The notes under the pieces are model-generated. The model was given only the letters and a program-made list of their open reading frames with translations, ran no database searches and had not been told where the DNA came from. DNA of 64,000 nucleotides from Escherichia phage vB_EcoM-pEK20, in the sequence record MZ868638.1; one strand, written 5' to 3'. A program made the translations under genes and the position numbers. This document shows, in pieces, positions 29,930-63,135 of this stretch. Position 1 is the stretch's first letter. Every line of letters starts with the position of its first letter.

Positions 29930-29959
29930 GTTTACATAAGGATGATGGTGTGTTACTAT
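29930..29959 (+). promoter_or_regulatory. early promoter (GTTTAC -35, TACTAT -10) upstream of ipI
   Basis: GTTTAC-N18-TACTAT; spacer contains the inverted repeat AGGATGATGG/CTATCATCCT. Confidence 0.6.
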
Positions 29960-29993
29960 CATCCTATCAAATAAACAACCTCAAGGAAATAAA

Positions 29994-30281
29994 ATGAAAA
30001 CCTATAAAGAATTTATATCACCTGTTGCTAACGTTTCTACTCTGACTGAAGCAACCCTTACTTCCGAAGTTATTAAAGCAAACAAAGGCCGTGAGGGTAA
30101 ACCAATGATTAGTCTAGCTGACGGCGAAGAAGTAAAAGGTACTGTTTACTTAGGAGACGGGTGGTCCGCTAAGAAAGATGGCGCTACTATTGTTATCTCT
30201 CCGGCTGAAGAGACTGCACTGTTTAAAGCTAAGCACATTTCTGTAGCTCAGCTTAAAATTATTGCAAAAACTCTTCTGTAA
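29994..30281 (+). CDS. ipI: internal protein I (capsid-packaged, injected; anti-restriction in T4)
   Basis: 95 aa; N-terminal capsid targeting sequence MKTYKEFI...TLTE with a gp21-type L-x-E cleavage site; position next to 57B as in T4. Confidence 0.8.
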   Translation: MKTYKEFISPVANVSTLTEATLTSEVIKANKGREGKPMISLADGEEVKGTVYLGDGWSAKKDGATIVISPAEETALFKAKHISVAQLKIIAKTLL

Positions 30282-30284
30282 GTA

Positions 30285-30314
30285 GTTTACACGCTGATAG
30301 GACTATGTTATAGT
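30285..30314 (+). promoter_or_regulatory. early promoter with palindrome GATAGGACTA...TAGTCCTATC around the -10
   Basis: GTTTAC-N18-TATAGT preceded by TG; 10-bp perfect inverted repeat flanks the -10. Confidence 0.6.
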
Positions 30315-30352
30315 AGTCCTATCAAAACAAAATGAGTAAATGGAGAAATAAA

Positions 30353-30538
30353 ATGAAACGCGCTGAACTGATTCGTAATGTTGCTGTAGTAATTGCTTCA
30401 ATGGCTTTTAGTTTTTCGATGTTTGTAGGATTCATTTGTGGACTACTGACAACAACAGAAAATTCTATCTCATTGGTAGTAGCATTTCTAATCGGCTTAA
30501 TCGCTATCGTTATGGATAAAATTGCAAAAGGTGAGTAA
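30353..30538 (+). CDS. small membrane protein (two predicted transmembrane helices), unknown function
   Basis: ATG at 30353 after GGAG; hydrophobic stretches VAVVIASMAFSFSMFVGFICGLL and SLVVAFLIGLIAIV. Confidence 0.6.
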   Translation: MKRAELIRNVAVVIASMAFSFSMFVGFICGLLTTTENSISLVVAFLIGLIAIVMDKIAKGE

Positions 30539-30539
30539 A

Positions 30540-30902
30540 ATGAAATATCACGTATATGCGGATTTTGAAGCAAATCCTTCTAAAGACCCTGATTGTCGTT
30601 TGATACGCAGACCATTTGATTCAGCAGCTCAAGCATGGGCTTGGATTAAATCTAAATCGCCTGGTTATATGTTCTTTGAAGTAGTCGATGACAATGGTAC
30701 ACTGCATCCGGCCCCTACAGAAACTATTAATTTCCTTCTGTTTGCCGGTTACGACTGTTATCCTCTTGGCGGTATTGACGACCTTGTTGCTACAGGAAAA
30801 ACTGTTGAGGCTCTTCGCGAAATTTGTAAAAACGCAGAAGAAAATTTTGACTGGTATCATATTGTTGATGCTCATACCTTTGAAATGGTGGAACATTCAT
30901 GA
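30540..30902 (+). CDS. hypothetical protein (120 aa)
   Basis: ORF with ATG after AAGGTGAG; coding-like composition; no recognisable motif. Confidence 0.6.
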   Translation: MKYHVYADFEANPSKDPDCRLIRRPFDSAAQAWAWIKSKSPGYMFFEVVDDNGTLHPAPTETINFLLFAGYDCYPLGGIDDLVATGKTVEALREICKNAEENFDWYHIVDAHTFEMVEHS

Positions 30903-31189
30903 TTCTTTATGCTAAGGTAAAATCCGTTGAGAACGGATATGAAAGCGACCGAGCTGCAGCTAAAGCACTAGTCGATTACTATGGTATTTTGACCCACTTT
31001 GAAGTTGAAAAGGTTTACGTCGACCGTTCATCTTCACAGGTTAAATTACTTTGGGAAGACCGCAAATTTAATAGTGTGAACTTTGATTTCTTTATTGAAA
31101 CAGAAAAAGGTCCTCTTGAATACGATATTTTCAAGAATCCTTTGAAATTATGTTGCATTGAATATAATTACATTAATATGGTACGGTGA
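30899..31189 (+). CDS. hypothetical protein (96 aa)
   Basis: ORF with ATGA overlap to the upstream gene. Confidence 0.55.
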   Translation: MILYAKVKSVENGYESDRAAAKALVDYYGILTHFEVEKVYVDRSSSQVKLLWEDRKFNSVNFDFFIETEKGPLEYDIFKNPLKLCCIEYNYINMVR

Positions 31190-31193
31190 GTAA

Positions 31194-31709
31194 ATGAATA
31201 TTTGTTTAGGCAGTACAATTCCTAAAGGTTACGTAATTGATGTCACTACTTGGGAAAATGACGGCGACAACTATAAAACCAAAACATTATTTGGTGTAGA
31301 AGAGCATGAGCTCCAACAGTTTAAATATCTCTTGAAGAAATTTAAGAGTCGTCATTCTAGCACTAAAGCTGAACGTTACTGTGGTAATACACCATTCAGT
31401 GATTGCTCGCTTTTAATCTATGAATACTTGGTTGAAGGACTGTTCTCAGACCAGCTTTATCCAGAATTCATTAAAAAGGTCTTTGATATTGAAGTCGACC
31501 TTGGTAATAAATCTGAAGAAGACGAATCGCGTGTATTCGACCTGTTCTTTGTGAAAGGCGATGAGATATCCCAAGGCCTTATTGATATTCTTGGCTATGC
31601 TTCTGAATACTACGACTATGATTTCTTGCGTGTAGTTGAACGTGTTGAATTCGCTTATATTGAAGAAGAAATTGTTTTGCCGACTGTTAAAATGATTGAT
31701 TTGCTTTAA
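31194..31709 (+). CDS. hypothetical protein (171 aa), acidic C-terminal half
   Basis: ORF tightly following the previous gene; no recognisable motif. Confidence 0.6.
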   Translation: MNICLGSTIPKGYVIDVTTWENDGDNYKTKTLFGVEEHELQQFKYLLKKFKSRHSSTKAERYCGNTPFSDCSLLIYEYLVEGLFSDQLYPEFIKKVFDIEVDLGNKSEEDESRVFDLFFVKGDEISQGLIDILGYASEYYDYDFLRVVERVEFAYIEEEIVLPTVKMIDLL

Positions 31710-31788
31710 GAATTATGTGTTATTATTAATTCATACCCTCTATTACCAAAGGTGCTCTAAAGTGCCTTTCATAATAGAAAGTTATTTA

Positions 31789-31863
31789 GGCCCTGTAGCT
31801 CAATGGGAGAGCTGTCAGCTCATAACTGATAGGTAGCTGGATCGAAACCAGCCAGGGTCACCA
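31789..31863 (+). tRNA. tRNA with CAU anticodon (Met or lysidine-modified Ile type), CCA encoded
   Basis: Hand-folded cloverleaf: acceptor GGCCCTG/CAGGGTC, D-arm GCTC-AATGGGA-GAGC, anticodon arm GTCAG-CTCATAA-CTGAT, T-arm GCTGG-ATCGAAA-CCAGC. Confidence 0.75.
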
Positions 31864-31866
31864 ATC

Positions 31867-31943
<77 letters not shown>

Positions 31944-31961
31944 ACTTTAAGTGAGGAAAAT

Positions 31962-32306
31962 ATGAAAGGCAATATTTATCTGGTAGTTCATGACTTAACG
32001 TTTTATTTTAACGAACGTGAAACAGTTATTTCCGATAGGTTAATTAATTCGCTGTATCAGCATGCTGATTATGTCTATTTTCAAAATGAATTCGGACATT
32101 GGAAGTTTCTTAAAAACCGTTCCGGGTTAACTAGTTTTGAATACTTTGACCGTAAAGACCTTTTAAACGAAATTCCATTACAACATAGGTTCCAGAAACG
32201 CGAATCACTATACTATTGTCGTCATATACCAAATGCTGAATGTGTTGATGAAGTAATTAATCTATGGCGTAGACGTAGAGAACAAATTGATGATATGTCA
32301 AAATAA
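31962..32306 (+). CDS. hypothetical protein (114 aa) downstream of the tRNA pair
   Basis: ATG at 31962 after GAGG; the track ORF start at 31914 would overlap tRNA-Arg. Confidence 0.6.
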   Translation: MKGNIYLVVHDLTFYFNERETVISDRLINSLYQHADYVYFQNEFGHWKFLKNRSGLTSFEYFDRKDLLNEIPLQHRFQKRESLYYCRHIPNAECVDEVINLWRRRREQIDDMSK

Positions 32307-32608
32307 GAAGCCGGGTCGCTACCGGCAAGTCGTCGGACTGATGTTCCCTGAGTAAGGACTGGTCTTAATAAATCTTTATGATTTGTTAATATCCCCTTAC
32401 ATCACAGCAGAAACGGCGCAAAGAATTATCGATTCGAGGAAATATCTTTGCCGTAAGCCGAGTAGCGTTTTTGACGGAACGTTCGGATATGGTCGAGATA
32501 TGGCCTTTTAAAAATATTGAGTAGCGTCAACTGCTTAATAACCGGGTTCGAATCCCGGCGTTTCGTACAAACACTTGCCTTAGTAGGTGGAAACCCCGAC
32601 AAGGTATA
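32307..32608 (+). ncRNA. ORF-free structured region, possible small stable RNA(s) with a tRNA-like T-arm
   Basis: About 300 nt with no ORF; CCGGG-TTCGAAT-CCCGG T-arm-like element at 32542-32558; repeated GAGTAGCG motif; ends at an intrinsic terminator. Confidence 0.4.
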
Positions 32609-32609
32609 T

Positions 32610-32638
32610 AGCCCCTTCCGAAAGGTTGGGGCTTTTTT
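32610..32638 (+). terminator. rho-independent terminator (AGCCCC...GGGGCU + U6)
   Basis: GC stem with inner CC-GAAA-GG, followed by TTTTTT. Confidence 0.8.
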
Positions 32639-32639
32639 G

Positions 32640-32647
32640 TATAAATA
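32640..32647 (+). promoter_or_regulatory. late promoter TATAAATA upstream of the 208-aa internal-protein-like gene
   Basis: Exact TATAAATA 35 nt upstream of the ATG at 32683. Confidence 0.65.
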
Positions 32648-32682
32648 TAGTAAACAATAAACCTACTTTCTAAGGACCATCA

Positions 32683-33309
32683 ATGTATACTTTTAATGAA
32701 TTTTTAGCCGAAACGGAAGTAATCACCGAAGCCGGTGTACGTATGACAAAAGAGAAATGGCAAGCTGCTTACGATGCTATTTCTGGTACAAAAACTAGTA
32801 CAGAGTTTTTCAAAAACGTTCAAGCCATGTATGGTATCGACACTTCCAGCCAAAAAGAATATTACAGAGCTTCTAAAGCATTCAAAGATATTGTTAGTGG
32901 CGGTGTTTCTGCTAAATCGGGTTCGCCTAAAGTAAAACCTGCTCCTACCGTTCCTAAACCTGCGACCCCTAAAGCAATAGCAAAACCTGAGCCTAAGCCG
33001 GAAGTAAAAGCAACTCCTAAAGCTCCTGCTCTTAAGTTTGATACTTCTAGCCTGGAAAAAAAATATAAACAACTATCTTCGCTTGTTCGTGATATTGAAT
33101 CCGATACATCTTCACTCGTTCGTGAATTCAACAGTCTTCGTAATGGCCAACATATCAACAACCTTGATACCCCAGACCTTTATCGTCTTTATTTGACTAT
33201 CGAAGGTTTGAAGTATACTCAACCACTTCACGATGCGATTAAAGAAAAACTTCGTCAGGCAGGTCGTTTGGCTGCTGACGCTGCTCAGTATGCAAAAACT
33301 CGTAAGTAA
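32683..33309 (+). CDS. internal-protein-like protein with capsid targeting sequence (208 aa)
   Basis: N-terminus MYTFNEFLAETEVITEA resembles the T4 CTS (MKTYQEFIAE) with L-x-E/I-x-E sites; Pro/Lys/Ala-rich linker; late promoter upstream. Confidence 0.65.
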   Translation: MYTFNEFLAETEVITEAGVRMTKEKWQAAYDAISGTKTSTEFFKNVQAMYGIDTSSQKEYYRASKAFKDIVSGGVSAKSGSPKVKPAPTVPKPATPKAIAKPEPKPEVKATPKAPALKFDTSSLEKKYKQLSSLVRDIESDTSSLVREFNSLRNGQHINNLDTPDLYRLYLTIEGLKYTQPLHDAIKEKLRQAGRLAADAAQYAKTRK

Positions 33310-33312
33310 AGA

Positions 33313-33332
33313 ATGGGGACTTCGGTCCCCAT
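33313..33332 (+). other. UUCG-tetraloop hairpin (AUGGGGAC-UUCG-GUCCCCAU) followed by UAGGGGGU
   Basis: 8-bp perfect stem immediately after the stop of the 208-aa gene; no U-tract. Confidence 0.55.
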
Positions 33333-33361
33333 TAGGGGGTCTATAACTTACTGAAAAAGTT

Positions 33362-33390
33362 GTTTACTTCTTCCCTAGATGTGTTACTAT
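33362..33390 (+). promoter_or_regulatory. early promoter GTTTAC-N17-TACTAT
   Basis: Matches the repeated early-promoter pattern in this window. Confidence 0.55.
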
Positions 33391-33418
33391 AGACCTATAA
33401 AAACATGAGGAAAATGTT

Positions 33419-33922
33419 ATGAGTCTTTATACCGAACTGAATAAAAAATCTGAAGAATCTGCTGAAACTATTTTTAAAAACGTGCAAAAGCGTATTTTAG
33501 AAAAGATGTATAACACTGCAGCTAAAGGTGAAAAATCTTGCCGGTTTCCGATGAGGTGTTCTTCTGATTTATGCGCAAATACTATTGAATGGCTGGAAAG
33601 TGAAGGTCTTACGGTAGAGAAAAACCCGGCGACTTCTATTGACAGCGAATCATATATTAGTATTTCTTGGGATAAATCAAGGGTAGAAGAGAAAGATGGT
33701 GATTGGGTTGTAGATGTTAAAACTTCTGATGGTGGACGTTCTGTTGAAGTTTCAGCTGTAGTTAAAGGTACCCACGAACAAAGGACTTGGGGTTGGGGTG
33801 GTGAAGAAAAAGAAATTGTTCTTAGTGTGATTGCCAGGTCAACCAGTAATAAAATTGCACAAAGCATCATTGACGCTGCAATTGCTGAAGCAGAAAAAAT
33901 TTGCAAAATTAAAAATAAATGA
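33419..33922 (+). CDS. hypothetical protein (167 aa)
   Basis: ORF with GAGG ribosome binding site downstream of an early promoter. Confidence 0.6.
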   Translation: MSLYTELNKKSEESAETIFKNVQKRILEKMYNTAAKGEKSCRFPMRCSSDLCANTIEWLESEGLTVEKNPATSIDSESYISISWDKSRVEEKDGDWVVDVKTSDGGRSVEVSAVVKGTHEQRTWGWGGEEKEIVLSVIARSTSNKIAQSIIDAAIAEAEKICKIKNK

Positions 33923-33981
33923 TGTACAAACGCCAAGGACGGTGTTACTATAGACTTATCAACTACAGAGGAGTAAACAAA

Positions 33982-34146
33982 ATGACTACTTTAATTATTT
34001 GGTTTGACGAAAATGAAGAAACATACTGTGTGAACATTGGCGAAAGCCCAATGCCTGAATTTGAATCCTCAGATAAAAACTCTGTTGTATCTTGGGCTGA
34101 AGGTTATAAAGCAGCTAAAGGTGACGTTGAAATAATTTACATCTAA
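33982..34146 (+). CDS. hypothetical small protein (54 aa)
   Basis: ATG at 33982 after GAGGAG; preceded by a TGTACA-type promoter. Confidence 0.5.
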   Translation: MTTLIIWFDENEETYCVNIGESPMPEFESSDKNSVVSWAEGYKAAKGDVEIIYI

Positions 34147-34164
34147 GTAAGTTTATGTTATAGT
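34135..34164 (+). promoter_or_regulatory. early promoter ATTTAC-N18-TATAGT with TAGTCCTATC element
   Basis: -35-like ATTTAC, TGTTATAGT extended -10. Confidence 0.5.
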
Positions 34165-34192
34165 AGTCCTATCAAATCAAGAGGAAAACAAA

Positions 34193-34420
34193 ATGGCTAA
34201 AGTTAGTATTGATGTCGTTGATTATGAATACACCGAAGAAGTTATTCGCAACCGACACCCTGAAGTTCGTATCGATTCAGTCCAAGATTCCAAGTTCTGG
34301 ACAACTGAGCTTAATCTGAGCGGTCCTTATGAAGTTGTTAAGAAGTTCATGGTTGAAGAATACTGCGAAGGCATGCACCCGGAAGACGCCGAGTTTTATG
34401 TCAATTTGATTAAAAAATAA
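34193..34420 (+). CDS. hypothetical small protein (75 aa)
   Basis: ORF after GAGGAAAA ribosome binding site. Confidence 0.55.
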   Translation: MAKVSIDVVDYEYTEEVIRNRHPEVRIDSVQDSKFWTTELNLSGPYEVVKKFMVEEYCEGMHPEDAEFYVNLIKK

Positions 34421-34449
34421 TTTACAAACTCTTGAGAGCAGAGTATAAT
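34420..34449 (+). promoter_or_regulatory. early promoter ATTTAC-N18-TATAAT
   Basis: Canonical TATAAT; GAGAGC/GCTCTC inverted repeat around the -10. Confidence 0.55.
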
Positions 34450-34490
34450 GCTCTCGTTGGATAATAAACCACCAATTGAAAGGTAATAAT

Positions 34491-35084
34491 ATGAACACAC
34501 TGAAGAAACTTGTTGAATTCATCCGCACTAAACTGGGTACTGCTATGGCTAAAAATCTGACTGTCGAAGAACAGTATAACGCAGCTGCAGATAAGTTGAT
34601 TACCCAAATCAAAGAACTAAAAACGGCTTCTGTTAAATCTATTAATGAAGAAAAACGTATTCGCGAACTTGTTATTGAAAAGAATAAGCAAGCCGCTTCT
34701 AAGGAACGTGAAATTCGTAAGCTCCTGGCTGAAGGACAAGATGTTACCATGCATGCTAAGCTTGGTCTTCTGTATCGTCGAACTGCCGAACAACTTAATA
34801 CAAAAGCTGACGGGTATGCCGCTATGCGAATTGAAATTGCTCGTAAGGTTGTTGAACTTGACGATGCTCGTCAGAATCTGGCAATCAAACTCGAATACAT
34901 TCGTGAAACTCGAGCAGCTAATGCCCTTGGTATCTCTACGGCTGATGATGTAATTGAAATCGCTGCACTGACTAAGGTTGATATCGAAGACACTCTGACT
35001 CGTGTTGAAACGTTCAATGGTACTCCAGCTGGTGTCGAAACCACTTCTGCTGATGTACAAGAATATATTAACTCTTTGAAATAA
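34491..35084 (+). CDS. PspA/IM30-like coiled-coil protein
   Basis: 197 aa, almost entirely helical heptad-like sequence with PspA-like layout (judged by eye); ATG at 34491, the track ORF starts at an upstream TTG. Confidence 0.5.
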
Positions 35085-35092
35085 AATAATAC

Positions 35093-35114
35093 GGAGGACT
35101 CCGGTCCTCCTTTT
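35093..35114 (+). terminator. rho-independent terminator (GGAGGAC-UCCG-GUCCUCC + UUUU)
   Basis: 7-bp perfect stem, tetraloop, then T-run; directly after the stop at 35084. Confidence 0.75.
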
Positions 35115-35133
35115 GGATAATAAAGGAGTTAAC

Positions 35134-35730
35134 ATGCGAAACCAAAATAATGATATTGACTCAATGTTCGAAGAGTTCCGAGATAAGGTAAATCCACCTA
35201 CGTCTTTAGTTGATTCATTACGATATGTTGCAACTGGACGTAAATGGTACTGGTCGTCTTCTTATGAGACAACTGAATATGCAAATAACCGAAAATCTTT
35301 ATTAGCCCCAGGTATTATGATTCATGATATCGGAGCTATTGCTAAACTAGTTGCAGACCATGATATTAGATTCACTGATTTCGTTGCTCCTACGTGGTCT
35401 GTTTGTTGTTTAAACACTGAATGGGACTATATCAGTGAACGTTCAGATGATTACATAGGCTTTAGAGACAAGCTTTTAAGGTCTAACATGTTTTATATTG
35501 ATACAGAAGTTCTGGTCAATAATAAAAAATACTACTTCACTTTAATCGTCGATTCTGAAACTATGTATGAAGGCAAGCCTTTGCTTAAAAGAGTTGATGC
35601 TTTAAGTGCTATTGATGCGCTTTATGAAACCATGGTTGTTAGTCCTAATTTCACTAACAATTTAATCCTTGAGCAATTTATTATGGAATGTAGAGAATAT
35701 GTCAAAGCCAACCCTATACATGCCAAGTAA
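35134..35730 (+). CDS. hypothetical protein (198 aa)
   Basis: ATG after AAGGAG; no recognisable motif. Confidence 0.6.
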   Translation: MRNQNNDIDSMFEEFRDKVNPPTSLVDSLRYVATGRKWYWSSSYETTEYANNRKSLLAPGIMIHDIGAIAKLVADHDIRFTDFVAPTWSVCCLNTEWDYISERSDDYIGFRDKLLRSNMFYIDTEVLVNNKKYYFTLIVDSETMYEGKPLLKRVDALSAIDALYETMVVSPNFTNNLILEQFIMECREYVKANPIHAK

Positions 35731-36094
35731 GCCCTGGGCGTATGAATACAAGCGTAAATTAATCCCAAATGAAGTACTATTTGGCCCTATTTTAGCTTTA
35801 GCGTTTTTAATCTTTATGTTTATAGGAGCTGTTTTAGATTCCAATAAAGTTATATCGTCTGATGCAGCGTTTTCATTAATGTTCGTCGCACCACTTATTG
35901 TACCGTTTTTATTAATGCCTATTAATTGGGCAGGATATTGGCACCAAGGCCGTCATCACAGAGCCCGATTAAGAGAATGGAAAGTTCAGTGCGCAAAAGC
36001 CCAAGCTCAGTATGATGAAGCTGTTAAAAAGTATGAATATGAAGAAGCTATGGAATTCGTTAAGGAAATAAGATGCAAAAACCTCAACTCTTAA
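35699..36094 (+). CDS. membrane protein with conserved C-terminal tail (EFVKEIRCKN); start uncertain
   Basis: Two hydrophobic helices; C-terminal motif shared with three paralogs; alternative ATG at 35720. Confidence 0.5.
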   Translation: MSKPTLYMPSKPWAYEYKRKLIPNEVLFGPILALAFLIFMFIGAVLDSNKVISSDAAFSLMFVAPLIVPFLLMPINWAGYWHQGRHHRARLREWKVQCAKAQAQYDEAVKKYEYEEAMEFVKEIRCKNLNS

Positions 36095-36315
36095 CCGTAT
36101 GGCCTTCTCTTGGTGAGAACGTTCTAATTTTTATTATGAGTATTGGCATGGGATTTGCCTTTGGATTAGTTGGATTTCTTATTGACGGCGTTGTGTTAGG
36201 ATTTATAGGGAACACTGTTGGATTCACAGACCAATGGCAGGACTTACGGTATACACAAGCCTTTGCATCCATCGCATCATTTTGTACTGTAGTCTATTTT
36301 TACTACGATTTATAA
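36073..36315 (+). pseudogene. membrane protein paralog, apparently frameshifted (conserved C-terminal tail continues in another frame to 36434)
   Basis: 80-aa two-helix ORF ends at 36315; the paralog tail (INHNKKNKKVY...ENFIKECRNE) is encoded in the -1 frame from about 36300, next to a T5 run at 36297-36301. Confidence 0.45.
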
Positions 36316-36338
36316 ACCATAACAAGAAAAATAAAAAG

Positions 36339-36368
36339 GTTTACGCTTCTCAAATGATTAGTTATAAT
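36339..36368 (+). promoter_or_regulatory. early promoter GTTTAC-N18-TATAAT
   Basis: Consensus -35 and -10; lies inside the out-of-frame tail region. Confidence 0.55.
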
Positions 36369-36426
36369 GAACTCCTAGCTAGACGTGAAAATGAAACAAT
36401 CGAAAACTTTATTAAGGAATGTAGAA

Positions 36427-36732
36427 ATGAGTAAGATTATTGAAATTAAAGTACCAGAGTTTAATGATGCCAAATCCGCTTCAGATGCAATTTATAAACT
36501 TCTGAATCAAGCTGAACGTATCGAAGAAGAAGCAACAAAGATCGCAGACCAATATGCCGTATCATTTTCTGTAGGTGATTATGGTAGTGGTCGTACTTAT
36601 TATCCTAAGGGTGAAATCGTATCCCAGTGGATGAAAGATGAAATTGAAAATAATGGTGGCGATGTTAAGCGTGAAGGTAATGGTTACATTATTACTGAAG
36701 GTGCTTGGGTTTCGTCTTCTGCGTTGTGCTAA
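36427..36732 (+). CDS. hypothetical protein, member 1 of a tandem paralog family ending G-W-x-S-S-x-x-C
   Basis: ATG at 36427; C-terminus EGAWVSSSALC. Confidence 0.6.
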   Translation: MSKIIEIKVPEFNDAKSASDAIYKLLNQAERIEEEATKIADQYAVSFSVGDYGSGRTYYPKGEIVSQWMKDEIENNGGDVKREGNGYIITEGAWVSSSALC

Positions 36733-36741
36733 GGAATCATT

Positions 36742-37014
36742 ATGTCTAAAGAACAAACCGAACTGGCTGAAGCCGTAGCAAAAATCTATGCAGCTATTGA
36801 GGCTGCCAAAGAAATTGCTGATAAACAAAACACAACATTCGACTTGTATCCAGCTTATGGTATGGGTGGAACCTATCATTCACCGGGACAACTTAAAGCC
36901 GATCTTGAACGTTGTACAAAAAACGGCTATGCTGAATGGGCTGACGTTTACCAATACGACTACAATCTGAGCCTCGAAACTGGTGGTTGGATTGCGTCTT
37001 CTCACACTTGCTAA
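36742..37014 (+). CDS. hypothetical protein, member 2 of the G-W-x-S-S-x-x-C family
   Basis: C-terminus TGGWIASSHTC. Confidence 0.6.
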   Translation: MSKEQTELAEAVAKIYAAIEAAKEIADKQNTTFDLYPAYGMGGTYHSPGQLKADLERCTKNGYAEWADVYQYDYNLSLETGGWIASSHTC

Positions 37015-37023
37015 GGAAATCAT

Positions 37024-37221
37024 ATGTCTCGTGAATTAGATTGTGCTGTACGTACGGCAGTAGCTGCCCTAGAAAACCTGTTCCAAATTGCAACAGAAGA
37101 ACGCGAAGAAGTTACATTATGGATTGAAGATAACGCAGGTCTGAATCTCCAGAATGCAATCTCGGTATCAAATAATAGTATTACTGTTCAAGGCTGGGTA
37201 TCATCTAGTTATTCTTGCTAA
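37024..37221 (+). CDS. hypothetical protein, member 3 of the G-W-x-S-S-x-x-C family
   Basis: C-terminus VQGWVSSSYSC. Confidence 0.6.
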   Translation: MSRELDCAVRTAVAALENLFQIATEEREEVTLWIEDNAGLNLQNAISVSNNSITVQGWVSSSYSC

Positions 37222-37225
37222 AACA

Positions 37226-37255
37226 GTTTACAACAAGATAGGGCTATGTTATAGT
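37226..37255 (+). promoter_or_regulatory. early promoter with palindrome GATAGGGCTA...TAGTCCTATC
   Basis: GTTTAC-N18-TATAGT with TG extension. Confidence 0.6.
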
Positions 37256-37283
37256 AGTCCTATCAAATTAAACGGAGACCACA

Positions 37284-37523
37284 ATGATTTATTACGAAAG
37301 TGTTGGAACCAAAGTGGTTGGTAAAACCATTACTCGTGAAAAGTTTGCAAAGATATTCGATATGCGTTATAAAAAATCTGAACACAAAGGCATCCGATTC
37401 GAAGATGCACACTGTACAATTTGCCCTTATAATGAAGACATAAATGGTACAATCGTTCCATTAGTAGAGGCTTCACACGATGACCTCTGGGATGAATATA
37501 ATATCGCATGTCGTGAAATTTAA
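37284..37523 (+). CDS. hypothetical small protein (79 aa)
   Basis: ORF after GGAGAC ribosome binding site. Confidence 0.55.
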   Translation: MIYYESVGTKVVGKTITREKFAKIFDMRYKKSEHKGIRFEDAHCTICPYNEDINGTIVPLVEASHDDLWDEYNIACREI

Positions 37524-37547
37524 GTTAATTAATCCGAGGAAAATATT

Positions 37548-38504: not shown

Positions 38505-38526
38505 CTTCACAAAACTGTTTACAACA

Positions 38527-38556
38527 AGATAGGACTATGTTATAGTAGTCCTATTA
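38527..38556 (+). promoter_or_regulatory. early promoter with palindrome GATAGGACTA...TAGTCCTATT
   Basis: GTTTAC-N18-TATAGT. Confidence 0.6.
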
Positions 38557-38574
38557 AAACATGAGGAGAATATT

Positions 38575-38880
38575 ATGAAATTAGGCGAAACCAACCGAAT
38601 TGGTCTTTTAACAATATTTGCATCACCTTTTTACGCAGCTCTTTCTGTTGCAGTATTACAAAAGGCTTACGATATGGATGGTGTTCCTGGTTGTATATTC
38701 TTATCACCATTTTTATTATTCGTCGGGGCTTTGTTATTATATGCCACGACTAGTTTTGACCATAATGTCTGGGTTAATTATAAATGTAAATTGTCTGAAG
38801 AAGAACACGCAGAAGCTCGTAAAAAAGCTATTGAATCTACCAATCTAGAAAATTTCATTAAAGAATGTCGAGGAAAATAA
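38575..38880 (+). CDS. membrane protein with conserved C-terminal tail (ENFIKECRGK)
   Basis: Two hydrophobic helices; tail shared with paralogs. Confidence 0.6.
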   Translation: MKLGETNRIGLLTIFASPFYAALSVAVLQKAYDMDGVPGCIFLSPFLLFVGALLLYATTSFDHNVWVNYKCKLSEEEHAEARKKAIESTNLENFIKECRGK

Positions 38881-38881
38881 T

Positions 38882-40059: not shown

Positions 40060-40292
40060 GTATAGCAATTTACATTAAATCAGAATCATGTGATAGTTAT
40101 CTGTACACATACGATAAAGATGTGTCAGAAGAAAAAATCAAAGACGATCTTAATATGGACCTTGATTTGTTCAGTCCTATTGCAGATTACAAACTTGCGG
40201 TCTCTAATAGTGAAAGTCCATCTAAAGAAACGCGCATTGAAGAATTTATGTCCGAATTAATGGCCAAATCATGGGACCGAGATGATGAGTAA
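40056..40292 (+). CDS. hypothetical small acidic protein (78 aa)
   Basis: ATG at 40056 after AGGAAT; the track ORF is extended upstream. Confidence 0.5.
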   Translation: MSIAIYIKSESCDSYLYTYDKDVSEEKIKDDLNMDLDLFSPIADYKLAVSNSESPSKETRIEEFMSELMAKSWDRDDE

Positions 40293-40740: not shown

Positions 40741-40748
40741 GTAATAAA

Positions 40749-40772
40749 TACCTCCTATAAACGTGGGAGGTA
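40749..40772 (+). promoter_or_regulatory. hairpin covering the gene e ribosome binding site, with a TATAAA late-promoter-like element in the loop
   Basis: TACCTCC-tataaacgtg-GGAGGTA inverted repeat; the 3' arm is the Shine-Dalgarno of e. Confidence 0.6.
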
Positions 40773-40774
40773 TT

Positions 40775-41263
40775 ATGAATATATTTGAAATGCTTCGTAA
40801 TGACGAAGGTCTTAGACTGACTTTATACAAAGACACTGAAGGCTTTTGGACGATTGGCATAGGCCATTTAGTAACAAAGAACCCGTCTTTAGCCGTAGCT
40901 AAAGCTGAACTTGACAGAATGATCGGACGTAAATGCAACGGTACAATTACCCTTGATGAGGCTGAAAAGTTATTTAATGAAGACGTTGATAAAGCTGTTC
41001 GCGGAATCTTGGGTAATGCTAAACTTAAACCGGTATATGATTCTTTAGATGCAGTTCGTCGATGTGCATTGGTCAATATGGTCTTCCAAATGGGTGTAGC
41101 AGGCGTCGCTGGTTTTACTAATTCTCTTCGTATGCTTCAACAGAAACGTTGGGACGAAGCGGCAGTAAATCTAGCCCAATCTAAATGGTATCGTCAGACA
41201 CCTAATCGCGCGAAACGCGTAATCTCAACATTTAAAACAGGAACTTGGAAAGCGTATATATGA
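40775..41263 (+). CDS. e: endolysin (T4 lysozyme e)
   Basis: [32 protein letters not shown]...; near-identical to T4 lysozyme, catalytic E11/D20/T26 context conserved. Confidence 0.95.
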
Positions 41264-41541: not shown

Positions 41542-41542
41542 T

Positions 41543-41572
41543 GTTTACTTCCTCCAAGGGTTTTGATACTAT
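41543..41572 (+). promoter_or_regulatory. early promoter upstream of denV
   Basis: GTTTAC-N18-TACTAT; CCTCCAAG in the spacer pairs with CTTGGAGG covering the denV Shine-Dalgarno. Confidence 0.55.
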
Positions 41573-41599
41573 ACATTCATCAACTACTTGGAGGAAATT

Positions 41600-42013
41600 A
41601 TGACTCGTATCAATTTAACACTTGTTTCTGAACTGGCCGACCAACATCTTATGGCTGAGTATCGTGAATTACCACGCGTATTTGGTGCAGTCCGTAAACA
41701 TGTTCAAAACGGTAAACGTGTAAAGGATTTTAAAATCTCTCCAACATTTATCTTAGGCACAGGTCACGTAACATTCTTTTACGACAAACTCGAATTTTTA
41801 CGTTTACGCCAAATCGAGCTAATCGCTGAATGCTTGAAACGTGGTTTCAAAATCAAGGACACGACTGTCCAGGATATTTCCGACATCCCTGCCGAATTTC
41901 GTAATAATTATGTCCCGTCCGAAGCGTCCATTGCGATAAGTCAAGCACGCTTAGATGAAAAAATTGCTCAACGTCCGACTTGGTACAAATACTATGGTAA
42001 ATCAATTTACTAA
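41600..42013 (+). CDS. denV: endonuclease V (pyrimidine dimer DNA glycosylase/AP lyase)
   Basis: [35 protein letters not shown]...; near-identical to T4 endo V; ATG at 41600. Confidence 0.93.
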
Positions 42014-42845: not shown

Positions 42846-42875
42846 GTTTACTTTCTCCTAGAATTGTGATAGTAT
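42846..42875 (+). promoter_or_regulatory. early promoter, duplicate of the denV promoter
   Basis: GTTTAC-N18-TAGTAT; overall similarity to 41543-41600. Confidence 0.5.
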
Positions 42876-42900
42876 ATTCATAATTACTTGGATGGGTAAA

Positions 42901-42999
42901 ATGACTTATATTAATTTGACTTTAGTATCTAAATTTGCTGATCAACATTTAATCGCCGAATACTGTGAATTGCCACGTGTTTTTTGGTATAATTCGTAA
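42901..42999 (+). pseudogene. truncated duplicate of the denV 5' end
   Basis: [28 protein letters not shown] matches denV residues 1-28, then diverges and stops; denV-like RKHV continues in another frame. Confidence 0.6.
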
Positions 43000-44845: not shown

Positions 44846-45144
44846 TGGCTCAAATCCTATCAGGCTTTGGAACTCATTATGAAGCATCTCGACGCATAAC
44901 TGAAAGCAATCCTTTTGGCCTTGTTCCGAAGCACAAGAAAATTCAAAGCCTTGATGACTTTGAGAATCGCCTATGGGCCCTCTTTAATGAGTACAAGGCA
45001 TATCTGAAAGAAGACGCTGACGATTGTCTTGAAGAAGATGAGATTGCGTATTACGAACAACGCCTTGAACAGCTCAAGAACTTCCACCAGGTTCGTGACG
45101 AAGTATCTAAAGCAGTTAAAAAGTTAATTCCTTTCAAAGAGTAG
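44845..45144 (+). CDS. hypothetical protein (99 aa)
   Basis: ATG at 44845 (TAATG overlap) after GAGGAAAAA. Confidence 0.55.
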
Positions 45145-45172
45145 TTTACTTCTCCTCTAGTTGTGTTACTAT
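45144..45172 (+). promoter_or_regulatory. early promoter upstream of regB
   Basis: GTTTAC-N17-TACTAT; CTCTAGTTG in the spacer pairs with CAACTAGAG covering the regB Shine-Dalgarno. Confidence 0.6.
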
Positions 45173-45200
45173 AGACCTGTCAACTAGAGGAGAAATCAAA

Positions 45201-45659
45201 ATGACTATCAATTCAGACGTTTTTATCCGCCGCAATAAACTCCGTCGAATCTTTGAAACGGAGTTCCGCAAAATAAATGCCAGTATAAAAGATGCTGCAA
45301 AGTCTCTTGGACTACCGGGCTTTCATATCAAGTATTCTCAACATCTCTTAGATCGTGCCATCCAGAGAGAAATAGATGAGAATTACGTTTTTGAATTATT
45401 TCATAAAGTAAAAAATCATGTTAAAGAAGTTGCAGAATTTTTATCAATGCCGGCACGTCCAGATGTTGATGAAGATTTTGTCGAAGGTGTCGAATATCGC
45501 CCAGGCCGTTTAGAAATAACTGATGGAAATCTTTGGTTAGGACTTACAGTTTGTCGCGAAAATCCAGCATTCAAAATGAAGACTCTTCAATGCAGAATGG
45601 CTATTATTAACAATAAACGACTACCAGGAAAAGCTTCTAAAGCAGTGATTAAAATCTAG
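45201..45659 (+). CDS. regB: RegB sequence-specific endoribonuclease
   Basis: MTINSDVFIRRNKLRRIFETEFRKIN...YSQHLLDRAIQREIDENYVFELFHK; near-identical to remembered T4 RegB. Confidence 0.9.
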   Translation: MTINSDVFIRRNKLRRIFETEFRKINASIKDAAKSLGLPGFHIKYSQHLLDRAIQREIDENYVFELFHKVKNHVKEVAEFLSMPARPDVDEDFVEGVEYRPGRLEITDGNLWLGLTVCRENPAFKMKTLQCRMAIINNKRLPGKASKAVIKI

Positions 45660-48773: not shown

Positions 48774-48802
48774 GTTTACTTCTCCTCAGGTTGTGTTATA
48801 GT
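48774..48802 (+). promoter_or_regulatory. early promoter GTTTAC-N17-TATAGT
   Basis: TCTCCTC in the spacer pairs with GAGGAGA at the downstream Shine-Dalgarno. Confidence 0.55.
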
Positions 48803-48829
48803 AGTCCTTACTTACTAGAGGAGAACGTT

Positions 48830-49009
48830 ATGACACGTAAAGAAAAAATTTCTAAGTTAATGTTTTTGATTGAAGAGTACGCTAATGCGGTATCTGATTG
48901 GGAAAATGCTCATGGTTGCGAAGATGGAGACATCGACATTAACAGAGCTATGAAAAAGATGGCTGAAGCCCACACCGAATTGCAAATGTATGTTAACGAG
49001 ATTATGTGA
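48830..49009 (+). CDS. small acidic protein, family member
   Basis: MTRKEKISKLMFLIEEY...; ATG at 48830 after GAGGAG. Confidence 0.55.
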   Translation: MTRKEKISKLMFLIEEYANAVSDWENAHGCEDGDIDINRAMKKMAEAHTELQMYVNEIM

Positions 49010-49016: not shown

Positions 49017-49226
49017 ATGCTTTACGATTATACTGGAAAATCTGAAGACGGTGTACTTGAACTTTTACCTGAAAGCGCTGAAGATGACGATATGACGACG
49101 GTGATGTTTTGTAAAAATGGCCCTGGGGATAAGGGATGGATTTATCTTCGTCAAGAAAATGACTTAATTGTTTTGGACCCTAAACAAGTTGAAGAACTTT
49201 ATCAACATTTAAAACACAATCGGTAG
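49017..49226 (+). CDS. hypothetical small acidic protein (69 aa)
   Basis: ATG at 49017. Confidence 0.5.
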   Translation: MLYDYTGKSEDGVLELLPESAEDDDMTTVMFCKNGPGDKGWIYLRQENDLIVLDPKQVEELYQHLKHNR

Positions 49227-49255
49227 TTTACGTCTTGGTAGGACTATGATATAGT
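49226..49255 (+). promoter_or_regulatory. early promoter with palindrome TTGGTAGGACTA...TAATCCTACCAA
   Basis: GTTTAC-N18-TATAGT. Confidence 0.6.
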
Positions 49256-49283
49256 AATCCTACCAAAACAAATGGAGAACAAA

Positions 49284-51953: not shown

Positions 51954-51989
51954 ACCTATCGAAACGAAATGAGTAAATTGGAGAATAAA

Positions 51990-53398: not shown

Positions 53399-53429
53399 GT
53401 TTACAAGGTCTATAGTTATGTTATTATAG
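53399..53429 (+). promoter_or_regulatory. early promoter with palindrome GGTCTATAG...TATAGACC
   Basis: GTTTAC-N17-TATTAT. Confidence 0.55.
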
Positions 53430-53454
53430 ACCTATCAACTACTGGAGGTAAAAC

Positions 53455-53982
53455 ATGAACGCTAAAGATATTTTCAACCTGGTAAATTATAACGACGGTA
53501 AATTTAAATCTGAAGCACAAAGCAAGTTCTTTAATGACGTTGCTTATGGTAACGAGATTACCGTGGACGGAGGTCAGATTTTCAAATCTCGCTGGAATTG
53601 GATTGCTATCATCGATTCAGTTGGAATTGTGGAAGTCTACAAAAACACTAACAAAAAACGTACATTATTCTGGTCTCGTGAAACTAACGAGCAGTACAAA
53701 AAGGATAAAGCATCTCGTTTATCCAAAGTAACCCAGGAAGATATCGAGTTTATCAAGAAAGATATCGAGATGTACGAAAATTTAATCGCTGAAGACCAGG
53801 CAGTACTCGACAAGTTTGACGAAATTAAAGCTTCTCGTGAAATCCCTGACTTCATGAAAGAAACAGTAAATGAACGATACGCTCTCACTTCAGAACGTAT
53901 TGCAAACTATACAAAACAGAAAGCAGAACGTATTAGTACTCTTCGGAAATTTGAAGAACGTTTAAAGACGGTTCACGCATAA
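53455..53982 (+). CDS. hypothetical protein (175 aa)
   Basis: ORF after GGAGG. Confidence 0.6.
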   Translation: MNAKDIFNLVNYNDGKFKSEAQSKFFNDVAYGNEITVDGGQIFKSRWNWIAIIDSVGIVEVYKNTNKKRTLFWSRETNEQYKKDKASRLSKVTQEDIEFIKKDIEMYENLIAEDQAVLDKFDEIKASREIPDFMKETVNERYALTSERIANYTKQKAERISTLRKFEERLKTVHA

Positions 53983-56035: not shown

Positions 56036-56065
56036 GTTTACAACCAAGGATGGTTGGAGTATAAT
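56036..56065 (+). promoter_or_regulatory. early promoter GTTTAC-N18-TATAAT
   Basis: Near-duplicate of the 55040 promoter. Confidence 0.6.
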
Positions 56066-58365: not shown

Positions 58366-58493
58366 ACCGTGGTATTCGGCTCGATGGGAGACAGTCGAGC
58401 CAGACGTCGAAACAGTTTACAATGACGAAGAAACGTGTTATGATGAACCTTCAATAAATGAATTAATTGATATGGAAATGGGAAGAGATTATT

Positions 58494-59268: not shown

Positions 59269-59270
59269 AT

Positions 59271-59302: not shown

Positions 59303-59307
59303 TTATC

Positions 59308-61595: not shown

Positions 61596-62062
61596 ATTAT
61601 GATAGATTTTATCCTTGCGATTTTGTGAATGGCCCTGGTTGCAGGGTCGTTCTTTTCGTTACAGGTTGTTTGCATAAATGCGAAGGGTGTTATAATAAAT
61701 CAACATGGAATGCTAGAAATGGTATTCCATTCACAGGTGAAACACTAGAGCAATTAATTGAATGTTTGAATAATGATTATATAGAAGGATTAACTATAAC
61801 TGGAGGAGACCCTCTCTATCCCGATAACAGAGATGTTGTTCATTGCATTGCTCAAACAGTAAAAAATCTTTATCCCAATAAAAGCATTTGGTTGTGGACA
61901 GGATATAAGTTTGAAGATATTAAACAACTAGAAATGCTTAAATATGTTGATGTTATTATTGATGGGAAGTATGAGAAAAATCTTCCGACCAAAAAACTGT
62001 GGCGAGGATCAGATAATCAGCGACTTTGGTCAAATACCGATGGGGTGTGGAAACATGATTAA
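61592..62062 (+). CDS. nrdG: anaerobic ribonucleotide reductase activating protein NrdG (radical SAM)
   Basis: Radical-SAM Cys cluster GCLHKCEGCYN. Confidence 0.92.
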   Translation: MNYDRFYPCDFVNGPGCRVVLFVTGCLHKCEGCYNKSTWNARNGIPFTGETLEQLIECLNNDYIEGLTITGGDPLYPDNRDVVHCIAQTVKNLYPNKSIWLWTGYKFEDIKQLEMLKYVDVIIDGKYEKNLPTKKLWRGSDNQRLWSNTDGVWKHD

Positions 62063-62172
62063 ATTGAATTACATTATGGATACTATAAATGATATGATTT
62101 TTCGTTTTGGTCCAGAATTTTATTCGCAGTATAGTTTGGTGTTTATCAATGCTTAGTTAATTAAGGGTAAAT

Positions 62173-62388
62173 ATGTATAAATTTCGTAAAGGTTTAGCTG
62201 ATTTTCTTACAACTGTAACGTTCTTTTTGTTTATGGCAGTTGGAGCTATTTTTCTTATTCCTTTTACTGTTGTATTTTTCTTGATTAGTTTAATTTCTCC
62301 GGAAAAGGGTTTATCCTCCAGCGAATTCAATGAACGTTTGGACAAAATTACTAATAAACTGAATTCTGTTCTTGATAAAAAGGCTTAA
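62173..62388 (+). CDS. small membrane protein (71 aa)
   Basis: One long hydrophobic helix. Confidence 0.55.
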   Translation: MYKFRKGLADFLTTVTFFLFMAVGAIFLIPFTVVFFLISLISPEKGLSSSEFNERLDKITNKLNSVLDKKA

Positions 62389-62390
62389 TT

Positions 62391-62708
62391 ATGATTAGTT
62401 TTGAGCGGTATGTGGTAGAGAGTTGGAAAGGTTTTGATATGTTCGGTAATGACTATTATTTTTACGAATGTAATCTAAATCCTAGTTTTTGGGCTGGACG
62501 TGAACGAGATCTCGAAGAAATTAATGCTCGTGCCGAATTGTTAGGTGAACTGCCTACAGTTTATTTTACCTTTGATGAATCTGGATTTGTTATCCAGGTT
62601 TATTTTCCTGAAGAAAACTCTGGCGAGGATTCTGTTAATCCTCCTTATTGGGCTTACCAAGGAATTATTTCTCGTGGAACAAAACTCGAACTTAAAGAAC
62701 AAGATTGA
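62391..62708 (+). CDS. hypothetical protein (105 aa)
   Basis: ORF after an ATGA overlap. Confidence 0.6.
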   Translation: MISFERYVVESWKGFDMFGNDYYFYECNLNPSFWAGRERDLEEINARAELLGELPTVYFTFDESGFVIQVYFPEENSGEDSVNPPYWAYQGIISRGTKLELKEQD

Positions 62709-62997
62709 AATTTATGGCATCCCTGAAGAAGTAGGACGTTGTCCGGGATGTTATACTGTTACAAAACTTTTAAAGGAGCTCAATGCTCCTTATACGTTTT
62801 ATAAAGTCCTCACTAATAATGGTAAGATTGAATATGACCGTCCTTTAATCGTATCTCTTGCTAAACGTGCAGGATTCACTTCACTTAATATTCGTTATCC
62901 TGTCATATTTTTAAATGATAAGAAACAAAAGAATATTGCAGAGTTTAAAAAGTCCTTGATTTCATTAGGATATGACTCCGATATCATAGAAGATTGA
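62698..62997 (+). CDS. glutaredoxin/thioredoxin-fold protein; start codon unresolved (no in-frame ATG near the domain start)
   Basis: KIEIYGIPEEVGRCPGCY...YPVIFLNDK has a Grx/Trx-like layout (beta strand, CPGC, cis-Pro-like region); frame offset from the 62391 gene. Confidence 0.4.
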   Translation, partial: NKIEIYGIPEEVGRCPGCYTVTKLLKELNAPYTFYKVLTNNGKIEYDRPLIVSLAKRAGFTSLNIRYPVIFLNDKKQKNIAEFKKSLISLGYDSDIIED

Positions 62998-63106
62998 CCA
63001 GGTGCCGCCTGGTCTTCTTTATCTCATTTCTAATATAATCCATTGGAATCTTCACTTCACTATCTCCTTGTGCCCCTCTCAAATCAAAAAATATTTTCAT
63101 AAAACA

Positions 63107-63135
63107 GTTTACATCCTCAATAGATGTGTTAAGAT
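63107..63135 (+). promoter_or_regulatory. early promoter GTTTAC-N17-TAAGAT
   Basis: Spacer CCTCAATAGATG pairs imperfectly with CATCTACTATAGAGG at the Shine-Dalgarno. Confidence 0.5.

Follow-up and report, generated by a model that had tools for sequence, protein, structure and literature searches.

Predicted early promoters of Escherichia phage vB_EcoM-pEK20 (MZ868638.1; the whole 64,000-nucleotide stretch analysed is called the window) carry, in 12 of 20 cases, a segment between -35 and +1 that is complementary to the start region or to the Shine-Dalgarno (SD) sequence of their own leader. In our judgement the best explanation, and a fairly probable one, is that cis-acting RNA hairpins are encoded across sigma-70-type early promoters and form on read-through RNA only. 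Such palindromes had been pointed out in a reading of the letters alone (the sequence-only reading). The observation holds and reaches further than was stated there, extending beyond the window to T4 and to T4-like phages.

Early promoters and their hairpins

The window belongs to a Mosigvirus, a T4-type phage like RB69 and JS09; HY126, JS09, HX01 and mar005P1 matched it at 95-97% identity (megablast, positions 30000-42000). Its early region lies on the + strand from about 29.4 kb and, following the annotation of JS09, has the order 57B-ipI-tRNA.4..-tRNAs-e.x-nudE-e-denV-ip-vs-regB-tk-rI-nrdC.x-pin-49-nrdD/G-55.x. The pattern GTTTAC-N16-19-TANNNT was matched 19 times versus 4.05 expected. Seventeen of these matches are on the + strand, all at or beyond position 29930, and three further promoters (34135, 34420 and 51923) have one mismatch in the -35. 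The promoters of this + strand set are predicted to be early and of the sigma-70 type. The count of about 19 + strand promoters in the sequence-only reading agrees with this set, while its -10 consensus, TA(T/C)A(A/G)T, was too narrow: GTTTAC-N17/18-TAYART fits nine promoters (0.11 expected), and the remaining -10 boxes are TACTAT, TATTAT, TAGTAT, TAAGAT or TATGAT. The consensus of the 20 promoters is tA.gg...CCTATc. The 25 nucleotides (nt) upstream of the -35 hexamer have an AT content of 0.71 and an A content of 0.43, versus region averages of 0.63 and 0.33, and every promoter unit is followed within 20-70 nt by the SD and ATG of a downstream gene. The +1 was placed seven bases past the -10, on the A of CCTATC, in agreement with the RB69 logo in PMC1524935. 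For RB69, 57 such promoters were predicted by Nolan et al. 2006, whose remarks cover the C at -3..-1 and make no mention of dyad symmetry (PMC1524935).

Under this assignment of +1, the 5' arm of the hairpins always lies between -35 and +1, in the spacer or over the -10/discriminator, and does not extend past -1. In the hairpins that we call class 1, the 3' arm runs from within the -10 to about +3; the hairpin brackets the -10 and leaves the SD open. In class 2, the 3' arm covers the SD and sometimes the AUG too. Members of both classes are listed in Table 1, and promoters are referred to by their first position. The 8-nt loop of the tRNA.4 hairpin contains most of the -10. All palindromes named in the sequence-only reading are present, with small slips in their coordinates (its 38538-38563 is 38528-38555), and so is the pairing between spacer and SD that it described for denV and regB, the regB run being 14 bp and not 9. 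Its list missed the hairpins at 29930, 34420, 53399 and 63107 and the weak one at 48774.

For every promoter (n=20), the spacer was tested for complementarity to the sequence that follows the -10, up to the ATG. Spacer shuffles were beaten at p<=0.03 by 12 of the 20 promoters, and the mean duplex energy of cognate pairs was -11.1 kcal/mol versus -7.5 for promoters combined with leaders other than their own. A control segment of 30 nt in front of the -35 (-64..-35) showed no cognate complementarity to the leader (-4.5 versus -5.6), indicating that the signal is specific to the -35..+1 segment. Within 246 distinct promoter-leader units from T4-like contigs, 32% beat 95% of the non-homologous chimeras, where 5% would be expected, and runs of at least 7 between the spacer and -10..+6 were found in 21% of the cognate pairs and in 1.8% of the non-cognate ones. 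An outer stem for class 1, formed by the region upstream of -35 with the SD, was also considered and rejected, as it gave no cognate signal.

Covariation of the hairpin arms in T4-like phages

The regB and denV loci were taken from IMG/VR, and their upstream regions were compared as duplexes, sequence by sequence. In nearly every T4-like lineage the SD of these genes is paired, with arms that differ in sequence and position. At regB the arms are TTCTCCTCTAGTTG/CAACTAGAGGAGAA in the window, TTTTCCTCTTGACTG/CAGTTAAGAGGAGAA with two G.U pairs in the T4 type (also written CTCTTGACTG/CAGTTAAGAG), TTTCTCCTCTTTATG/CATAAAGAGGAGAAA over 15 bp in locus L011 and TCTCCTGTAAG/CTTACAGGAGA in L013; in L014 they are GGGCCAT/ATGGCCC and bracket the -10 instead of pairing with the SD. 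At denV, the window has TTCCTCCAAG/CTTGGAGGAA, T4 and L020 have TCTCCTGTAG/CTACAGGAGA, L025 has CTCCGTTTG/CAAACGGAG and L045 has TCTCCTGTG/CACAGGAGA. In L029, L039, L043, L050 and L051 the 5' arm of denV is shifted onto the -10/discriminator and pairs with the SD and the AUG, as in TATGATGTCTTC/GAGGACATCATG, which includes U.G pairs. Cognate regB and denV pairs ranked among the best of 10-32 non-cognate combinations.

For class 2, covariation was measured without an alignment by anchoring 30 distinct arm pairs on CTCC...GGAG. At the five positions past the anchor, the paired fractions were 0.77, 0.77, 0.73, 0.60 and 0.80 versus 0.28-0.49 in non-cognate pairs, and all four Watson-Crick types were found at position 2 (AT 5, TA 5, GC 8, CG 5). 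With AGG...CCT as the anchor for class 1, the adjoining position (the partner of -4) was paired in 0.79 of the cognate versus 0.35 of the non-cognate cases, again with four pair types. Individual class 1 arms also differ between phages: those of ipI are AGGATGAT/ATCATCCT in the window versus TGATGAGGTA/TACCTCATCA in T4, and the tRNA.4 arm is GATAGGACTA in the window versus ATAGGGT in T4, where the pair is ATAGGGT/ACCCTAT. The 49226 unit differs from the 30285 family by a compensatory change of A-T to G-C, and JS09 carries a perfect 12-bp version of it. The arms thus differ among related phages with complementarity kept, for denV and regB as well as for class 1, which is the outcome that the sequence-only reading had proposed to look for. 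An RNAalifold run on a MAFFT alignment of the regB promoters was discarded; it gave a meaningless 7-pair consensus, because indels and register shifts of the arms put the alignment out of structural register.

Both classes are found in T4 as well, as the sequence-only reading had suggested checking. In the homologous 40 kb of T4, class 1 hairpins stand at ipI, tRNA.4, e.7, ipIII, ipII (14 bp) and mobD.2 (13 bp) and class 2 hairpins at denV, regB and nrdC.8. The class of a given gene varies: nrdC.8 is class 1 in the window and class 2 in T4, where GTTCCTC pairs with the SD GAGGAAC, and denV is class 1 in L032 and L033. Judging from these orthologs, the two hairpin classes are the ends of a continuum, since the class varies for the same gene among phages, and the two discrete types of the sequence-only reading do not hold.

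Folding of read-through and locally initiated RNA

In the folding model the hairpin forms on read-through RNA only, because transcription from the promoter itself starts downstream of the 5' arm. Fold energies are 0 to -5.4 kcal/mol for leaders initiated locally (0 for tRNA.4 at 30285); those of read-through RNAs lie between -6.6 and -23.2, for the most part at -9 to -23 kcal/mol. When compared with shuffled sequences, read-through RNAs gave z-scores of -3.74 for regB, -3.80 for denV, -3.25 for 30285 and -2.96 for 49226, versus +0.39, +0.61, +1.37 and -0.02 for the respective local leaders; nrdC.8 (53399) reached z=-2.02 in its read-through form. Taken together, the read-through folds in this test have energies of -14 to -22 kcal/mol and z-scores of -2 to -3.8. 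Energies and z-scores agree with the proposal, made in the sequence-only reading, that the local transcript lacks the 5' arm and that the read-through transcript forms the hairpin.

The predicted probability that the SD is unpaired is 0.61 in local versus 0.10 in read-through RNA for denV, and 0.71 versus 0.21 for regB. Sequestration of the SD is predicted for denV, regB and 63107; at 53399 it hinges on an outer stem that is weak and did not pass the cognate/shuffle test (p=0.07). The SD of the sequestered cases is unpaired at 0.10-0.46 in read-through versus 0.58-0.76 in local RNA. In class 1 read-through RNA the SD is still 0.5-0.8 unpaired. Promoter-specific translational control, as suggested by the sequence-only reading, would accordingly apply to the SD-pairing class, for which folding and the covariation of denV and regB orthologs speak, and not to the class that brackets the -10. 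For the SD-pairing class, the idea that read-through and local transcripts differ in this way appears well supported.

RNA or DNA as the selected form

In 100 distinct helices, helix-internal mismatches were of the G.U type in 30 and of the A.C type in 6 cases, where composition predicts 53% G.U (p=1.6e-4), a raw ratio that is inflated because many class 1 G.T cases share the recurring consensus context TATGGTA/TACTATA. In class 2, the involvement of SD and AUG together with the G.U pairs points to RNA. Selection at the RNA level is likely for class 2 and suggested for class 1. What the analysis shows is the complementarity with its specificity and covariation, and the difference between folds of read-through and local RNA; that RNA rather than DNA is the selected form is something we infer, and so is every functional consequence.

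Identity of the hairpins with intrinsic (Rho-independent) terminators was rejected. No U-tract follows any promoter hairpin, the tails being A-rich and of the AAAACAAA type (AAAACAAAA, AAATCAAAATG), and no + strand terminator call coincides with one of them. Two or three credible + strand terminators were found in the early region, at 35093-35110 and 62996-63014. Read-through across the promoters must therefore be common, and T4 early transcripts do run on into downstream genes (PMC2988021). The terminators at these two places are bidirectional-looking GC-rich hairpins, GGAGGACTCCGGTCCTCC-TTTT and GACCAGGTGCCGCCTGGTC-TTCTTT, and are the only convincing ones on the + strand of the 34-kb region.

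Relation to described stem-loops

Units of a comparable build, called PeSL (promoter-early stem-loop) cassettes, have been described for RB49/phi1, PST/T4 and nt-1/KVP40 (Arbiol et al. 2010, PMC2839356; Comeau et al. 2014, PMC4122927). Shared with the present units are an A/T-rich tract, an early promoter of sigma-70-like type, a stem-loop in the -35/-10 spacer or over the -10, and an SD with start codon; PeSL units also recur through hyperplastic early regions, adjoin indels between close relatives and have G-T pairs in their stems. Mini-circles that arise when units recombine with each other are counted among the PeSL traits as well. Of the PeSL features, the early promoter pattern, the A/T-rich upstream tract, a stable stem-loop (12/20) and the downstream SD and ATG can be recognised in the window. 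The PeSL papers treat the stem-loop as a terminator or attenuator and as a recombination linker, do not discuss translation and do not name a U-tract as a requirement; for PST/T4 the stem-loop is drawn just upstream of the promoter. Unlike in these descriptions, many 3' arms here are the SD, the arms co-vary and there is no U-tract. No description of PeSL-type units for the RB69/Mosigvirus group was found.

Translation control by a similar geometry is known from T4 genes e, soc, 49 and I-TevI (Uzan & Miller 2010, PMC3014915). There, too, long transcripts have the SD and/or AUG paired with sequence farther upstream, and transcripts from the proximal promoter lack the 5' arm and are translated. 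The proximal promoter of these genes is a late one (gp55, TATAAATA), so that they are silent early and translated late, which is experimentally supported. The units described here have an early sigma-70 proximal promoter, and the temporal outcome predicted from their sequence is reversed: the gene would be translated only as immediate-early. The class 2 hairpins would work, as we see it, like this family and are not strict members of it, since their proximal promoters are early and not late. In the window, 15 TATAAATA sites were listed, none of them within an early promoter unit. Gene e of the window, included in Table 1 as a comparator, has a late-promoter-like AATAAATA at 40743-40750 that overlaps the 5' arm and matches the arrangement of T4 gene e (PMC3014915). 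Aeh1 mobE and T4 segB (cited in PMC3014915) likewise have an RNA hairpin that hides the ribosome-binding site on read-through transcripts; they differ in being selfish, free-standing homing endonuclease genes whose hairpins are not embedded in promoters, whereas ordinary early genes (denV, regB, nrdC.8) are concerned here.

Stem-loops of T4-type phages have been described before, and the present hairpins are a variant of these; the version with early promoter and SD appears to be new. In the searchable literature, which did not extend to older T4 promoter papers and the genome review, no description of early-promoter-embedded SD hairpins in T4-type phages was found. Repeated early promoter-plus-leader units that flank ipI, ip10 and ipII-type genes of T-even phages were reportedly the subject of work by Repoila et al. 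in 1994 (cited in PMC4122927), said to be about the shuffling of IP genes and not about hairpins. The T4 promoters of ipI, ipII and ipIII carry palindromes.

Proposed mechanism

In a transcript from its own promoter the 5' arm would be missing and the leader would be open and nearly unstructured, while in a transcript arriving from any of the many upstream tandem promoters the hairpin would form. For class 2 (denV and regB, and more weakly 63107 and 48774), where the 3' arm is the SD, read-through RNA would be translationally silent for that gene, and expression of the gene would be tied to its own immediate-early promoter. Since RegB is inhibited by secondary structure (PMC1702504), the paired GGAG of class 2 read-through RNA should be protected from RegB, and the untranslated read-through stretch may be exposed to Rho. 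Class 1 hairpins would most likely be intercistronic structural elements on read-through RNA, acting as an attenuator or by holding up 3'-exonucleases. As a repeated unit, promoter and hairpin may double as a recombination linker. An association of class 1 with RegB-consensus leaders, with the hairpin as a 3' protective element after cleavage by RegB, found no support: such leaders occurred at frequencies of 0.33 with class 1, 0.33 with class 2 and 0.21 with no hairpin.

Several results weigh against this interpretation. Eight of the 20 promoters have no hairpin. The pairing at 48774 is not significant in a fold of the whole region (z=-0.45), and the ortholog of 49226 has uncompensated single mismatches in close relatives, which suggests weak constraint there. 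The role given to class 1, whose SD is accessible, is a guess. When loop-proximal mismatches that the conserved TG/-10 context imposes are left out, the G.U bias drops to 12 versus 4 (p=0.08). Folds of the + strand are more stable than those of the - strand, but random 65-mers of the region are equally asymmetric (about 1 kcal/mol), so the comparison of strand folding is uninformative. The division into read-through and local RNA depends on +1 sites that were assumed from the sequence. Moreover, leaders of just 20-30 nt leave the SD no place for a partner other than upstream of +1, and promoter specificity could be a by-product of this compact geometry.

A wider proposal, which we regard as possible and put forward tentatively, is a genome-wide 'promoter-embedded insulation code' in T4-type phages, by which a gene would be translatable from its own immediate-early transcript only and read-through RNA would be silent, RegB-resistant and possibly Rho-sensitive. 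The early genes stand behind strong tandem promoters with hardly any terminators, and on this proposal that is why many of them hold the 5' arm within their own promoter. If this were true, translational and transcriptional insulation would be one mechanism, the stem-loops called PeSL 'terminators' would partly be these hairpins, and an explanation would be at hand for conserved spacer features (CTCC after the -35, TAG near -20) that play no part in the binding of RNA polymerase. Should the proposed role of the hairpins be correct, some of the sequence conserved in T4-type early promoters would serve the RNA and not RNA polymerase, and promoter logos would have to be reread, with spacers that are CT-rich or contain TAG, and likewise the start region CCTATC, being structural. 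It would show how dense phage genes with nested transcripts hold independent expression schedules without terminators, and would bear on the interpretation of the PeSL stem-loops. The denV and regB hairpins exist in T4, which is genetically tractable, and expression of RegB and denV can be assayed.

Alternative explanations

The units might be PeSL-type cassettes, in which the stem-loop attenuates or terminates upstream transcription and the whole unit mainly offers homologous recombination a place at which small early genes are shuffled. One such stem-loop cut lacZ expression as strongly as rrnB T1 (PMC2839356), and the window has the A-rich tract upstream of -35 (0.43 versus 0.33 in the region) and near-identical repeats among four class 1 units (30285, 37226, 38517 and 49226). 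Three of the five breakpoints between the window and JS09 (38517, 45140 and 49185) coincide with a promoter unit or lie no more than 40 nt from one, in a sample of only five taken without a background model, and an extra open reading frame (ORF) of JS09 is bracketed by a pair of promoter-hairpin units in a place that has a single unit in the window. The hairpins lack a U-tract, though, and none was called a + strand terminator; recombination requires sequence identity and not intramolecular complementarity, and it leaves the covariation of the arms and the frequent use of the SD as 3' arm unexplained. We think it unlikely, yet worth serious weight, that this is the main account; it is compatible with the RNA hairpins proposed above and, for class 1, it is the leading account. 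That the units do nothing at all, and that their complementarity comes from a partly self-complementary promoter/leader consensus (TAGG...CCTA, CTCC...GGAG) or from chance in AT-rich DNA, is the most improbable of the explanations. It is true that the consensus of the 20 promoters, tA.gg...CCTATc, contains such a pair and that CT-rich spacers pair with any GGAG leader, their non-cognate energies being about -10. The sequence-only reading had named this as an outcome that would speak against it, and a small part of the signal is indeed of this origin; yet several pair types co-vary past the consensus anchors, cognate pairs surpass non-cognate chimeras, the segment upstream of -35 is negative and orthologs with different arms keep their hairpins. 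On the strength of the chimera and anchored-covariation tests, an absence of function seems largely refuted.

The palindromes that bracket the -10 could alternatively be DNA operators for a dimeric phage or host protein, for instance a repressor that shuts off early promoters, as the sequence-only reading had allowed. They cover the -10 and the start site, which is the classic position of an operator, four copies have nearly the same sequence, and the mechanism of T4 early-promoter shut-off is reportedly not fully understood (PMC3014915). Against a protein site, the arms are diverse across promoters and orthologs and still complementary (AGGACTA, AGGATGAT, AGGTCTATA, GAGAGCA, GAGGTA, AGGGT, GGGCCAT, AATTGTGA), the register relative to the -10 moves by up to 6 nt, the tolerated mismatches are mostly G.T, and the palindrome occurs in just about 20-35% of the early promoters; we consider an operator highly improbable. 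Equally hard to credit is a structure at the DNA level, a cruciform or a single-stranded fold that tunes the promoter with supercoiling or acts in recombination or replication, for example as a substrate of endonuclease VII. Perfect inverted repeats of 10-14 bp with loops of 6-8 nt over the -10 (T4 ipII with 14 bp, T4 mobD.2 with 13 bp, 30285 of the window with 11 bp) and the breakpoints at promoters would fit such a structure. A cruciform pairs both strands, however, and the + strand mismatches are biased to G.T; the class 2 loops of 20-30 nt are unfavourable for cruciforms, and the SD is specifically involved. AT-rich short arms with large loops are poor at cruciform extrusion.

Inventory and further observations

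Table 1. Early promoter hairpins of the window, early promoters without a significant hairpin, and the gene e hairpin used for comparison
Feature	Coordinates	Strand	Class	5' arm / 3' arm	Remarks
ipI early promoter	29930..29965	+	1	AGGATGAT 29939-29946 / ATCATCCT 29958-29965	-10 ending 29959; longest-run p=0.007
tRNA.4 early promoter	30285..30324	+	1	TGATAGGACTA 30295-30305 / TAGTCCTATCA 30314-30324	11 bp; shuffle p=0
e.6 early promoter	34420..34456	+	1	TGAGAGCA 34433-34440 / TGCTCTCG 34449-34456	-35 = ATTTAC; p=0.013
Promoter of ORF 37284-37523	37226..37264	+	1	GATAGGGCTA 37237-37246 / TAGTCCTATC 37255-37264	one G.U
Promoter of ORF 38575-38880	38517..38555	+	1	GATAGGACTA 38528-38537 / TAGTCCTATT 38546-38555	one G.U
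Promoter of ORF starting 49284	49226..49266	+	1	TTGGTAGGACTA 49235-49246 / TAATCCTACCAA 49255-49266	one C.A mismatch
nrdC.8 early promoter	53399..53457	+	1	AGGTCTATA 53406-53414 / TATAGACCT 53425-53433	ATG 53455
denV promoter and leader	41543..41602	+	2	TTCCTCCAAG 41549-41558 / CTTGGAGGAA 41587-41596	3' arm includes SD; ATG 41600; p=0
Second denV-type cassette	42846..42903	+	2, decayed	AGAATTGTGA 42860-42869 / TCATAATT 42878-42885	imperfect; ATG 42901
regB promoter and leader	45144..45203	+	2	TTCTCCTCTAGTTG 45150-45163 / CAACTAGAGGAGAA 45181-45194	3' arm includes SD; 14-bp run; ATG 45201
Early promoter	48774..48832	+	2, weak	TTCTCCTC 48780-48787 / GAGGAGAA 48818-48825	ATG 48830; p=0.01
Early promoter	63107..63166	+	2, imperfect	TCCTCAATAGATG 63114-63126 / CATCTACTATAGAGGA 63141-63156	ATG 63164; energy p=0
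Early promoters without significant hairpin	33362-33390, 34135-34164, 36339-36368, 42140-42169	+			shuffle p>0.05
Early promoters without significant hairpin	51923-51951, 56036-56065, 58415-58444, 63809-63838	+			shuffle p>0.05
Gene e (lysozyme), SD-sequestering hairpin (comparator)	40743..40777	+		AATACCTCC 40747-40755 / GGAGGTATT 40766-40774	ATG 40775

The decayed denV-type cassette (42846-43040) consists of the promoter with mutated palindrome arms (TCATAATT versus TCACAATT in L033) and a weakened SD, GGATGGG, followed by an N-terminal fragment of denV only, which JS09 annotates as DenV. The intact counterpart of this cassette is the functional denV promoter of IMG/VR locus L033, with AATTGTGA/TCACAATT and GGAGGG. 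The nrdC.3-type promoter at 56036-56065 has a small hairpin entirely within its spacer, AACCA-agga-TGGTT, and T4 nrdC.4 has CCACA-agga-TGTGG in the same place; this third placement matches one PeSL subclass.

The ends of indels or replacements relative to JS09 are at 38517-38524 (in the -35; versus L001 8966-9242), at 45140 and at 49112-49185. The extra ORF of JS09 is JS09_048 (66 aa), and the two promoter-hairpin units that bound it have different arms, AGGTCTGTAGT/ACTATAGACCT and TGATAGGGCTA/TAGTCCTATCA. A leader module, ATGAGTAAAT(T)GGAGAA(A)TAAAATG, is found at 30324-30355, at 51960-51992 and at L001 9000-9037 and is common to the unrelated tRNA.4, nrdC.10 and JS09_048. The GGAGAAUAAAA within it agrees with GGAGRAYARAA, the consensus published for RegB targets, and an internal upstream ATG is in frame in two of the three copies.

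At the gathering score of Rfam, positions 29000-64000 matched no hairpin family; the only matches were two tRNA genes, at 31789-31860 and 31867-31940 (RF00005, 59 and 71 bits), where the corresponding cluster of T4 has eight. In four of the IMG/VR denV loci, L040, L042, L046 and L048, which are on contigs of about 350 kb from jumbo-phage relatives, the -35 of the denV promoter is shared with the hairpin of an intrinsic terminator about 60 nt upstream of denV. The order there is GGGTTGACttcgGTCAGCCC, then TTTTT, then GCTATAAT, a different and very compact overlap of terminator and promoter.

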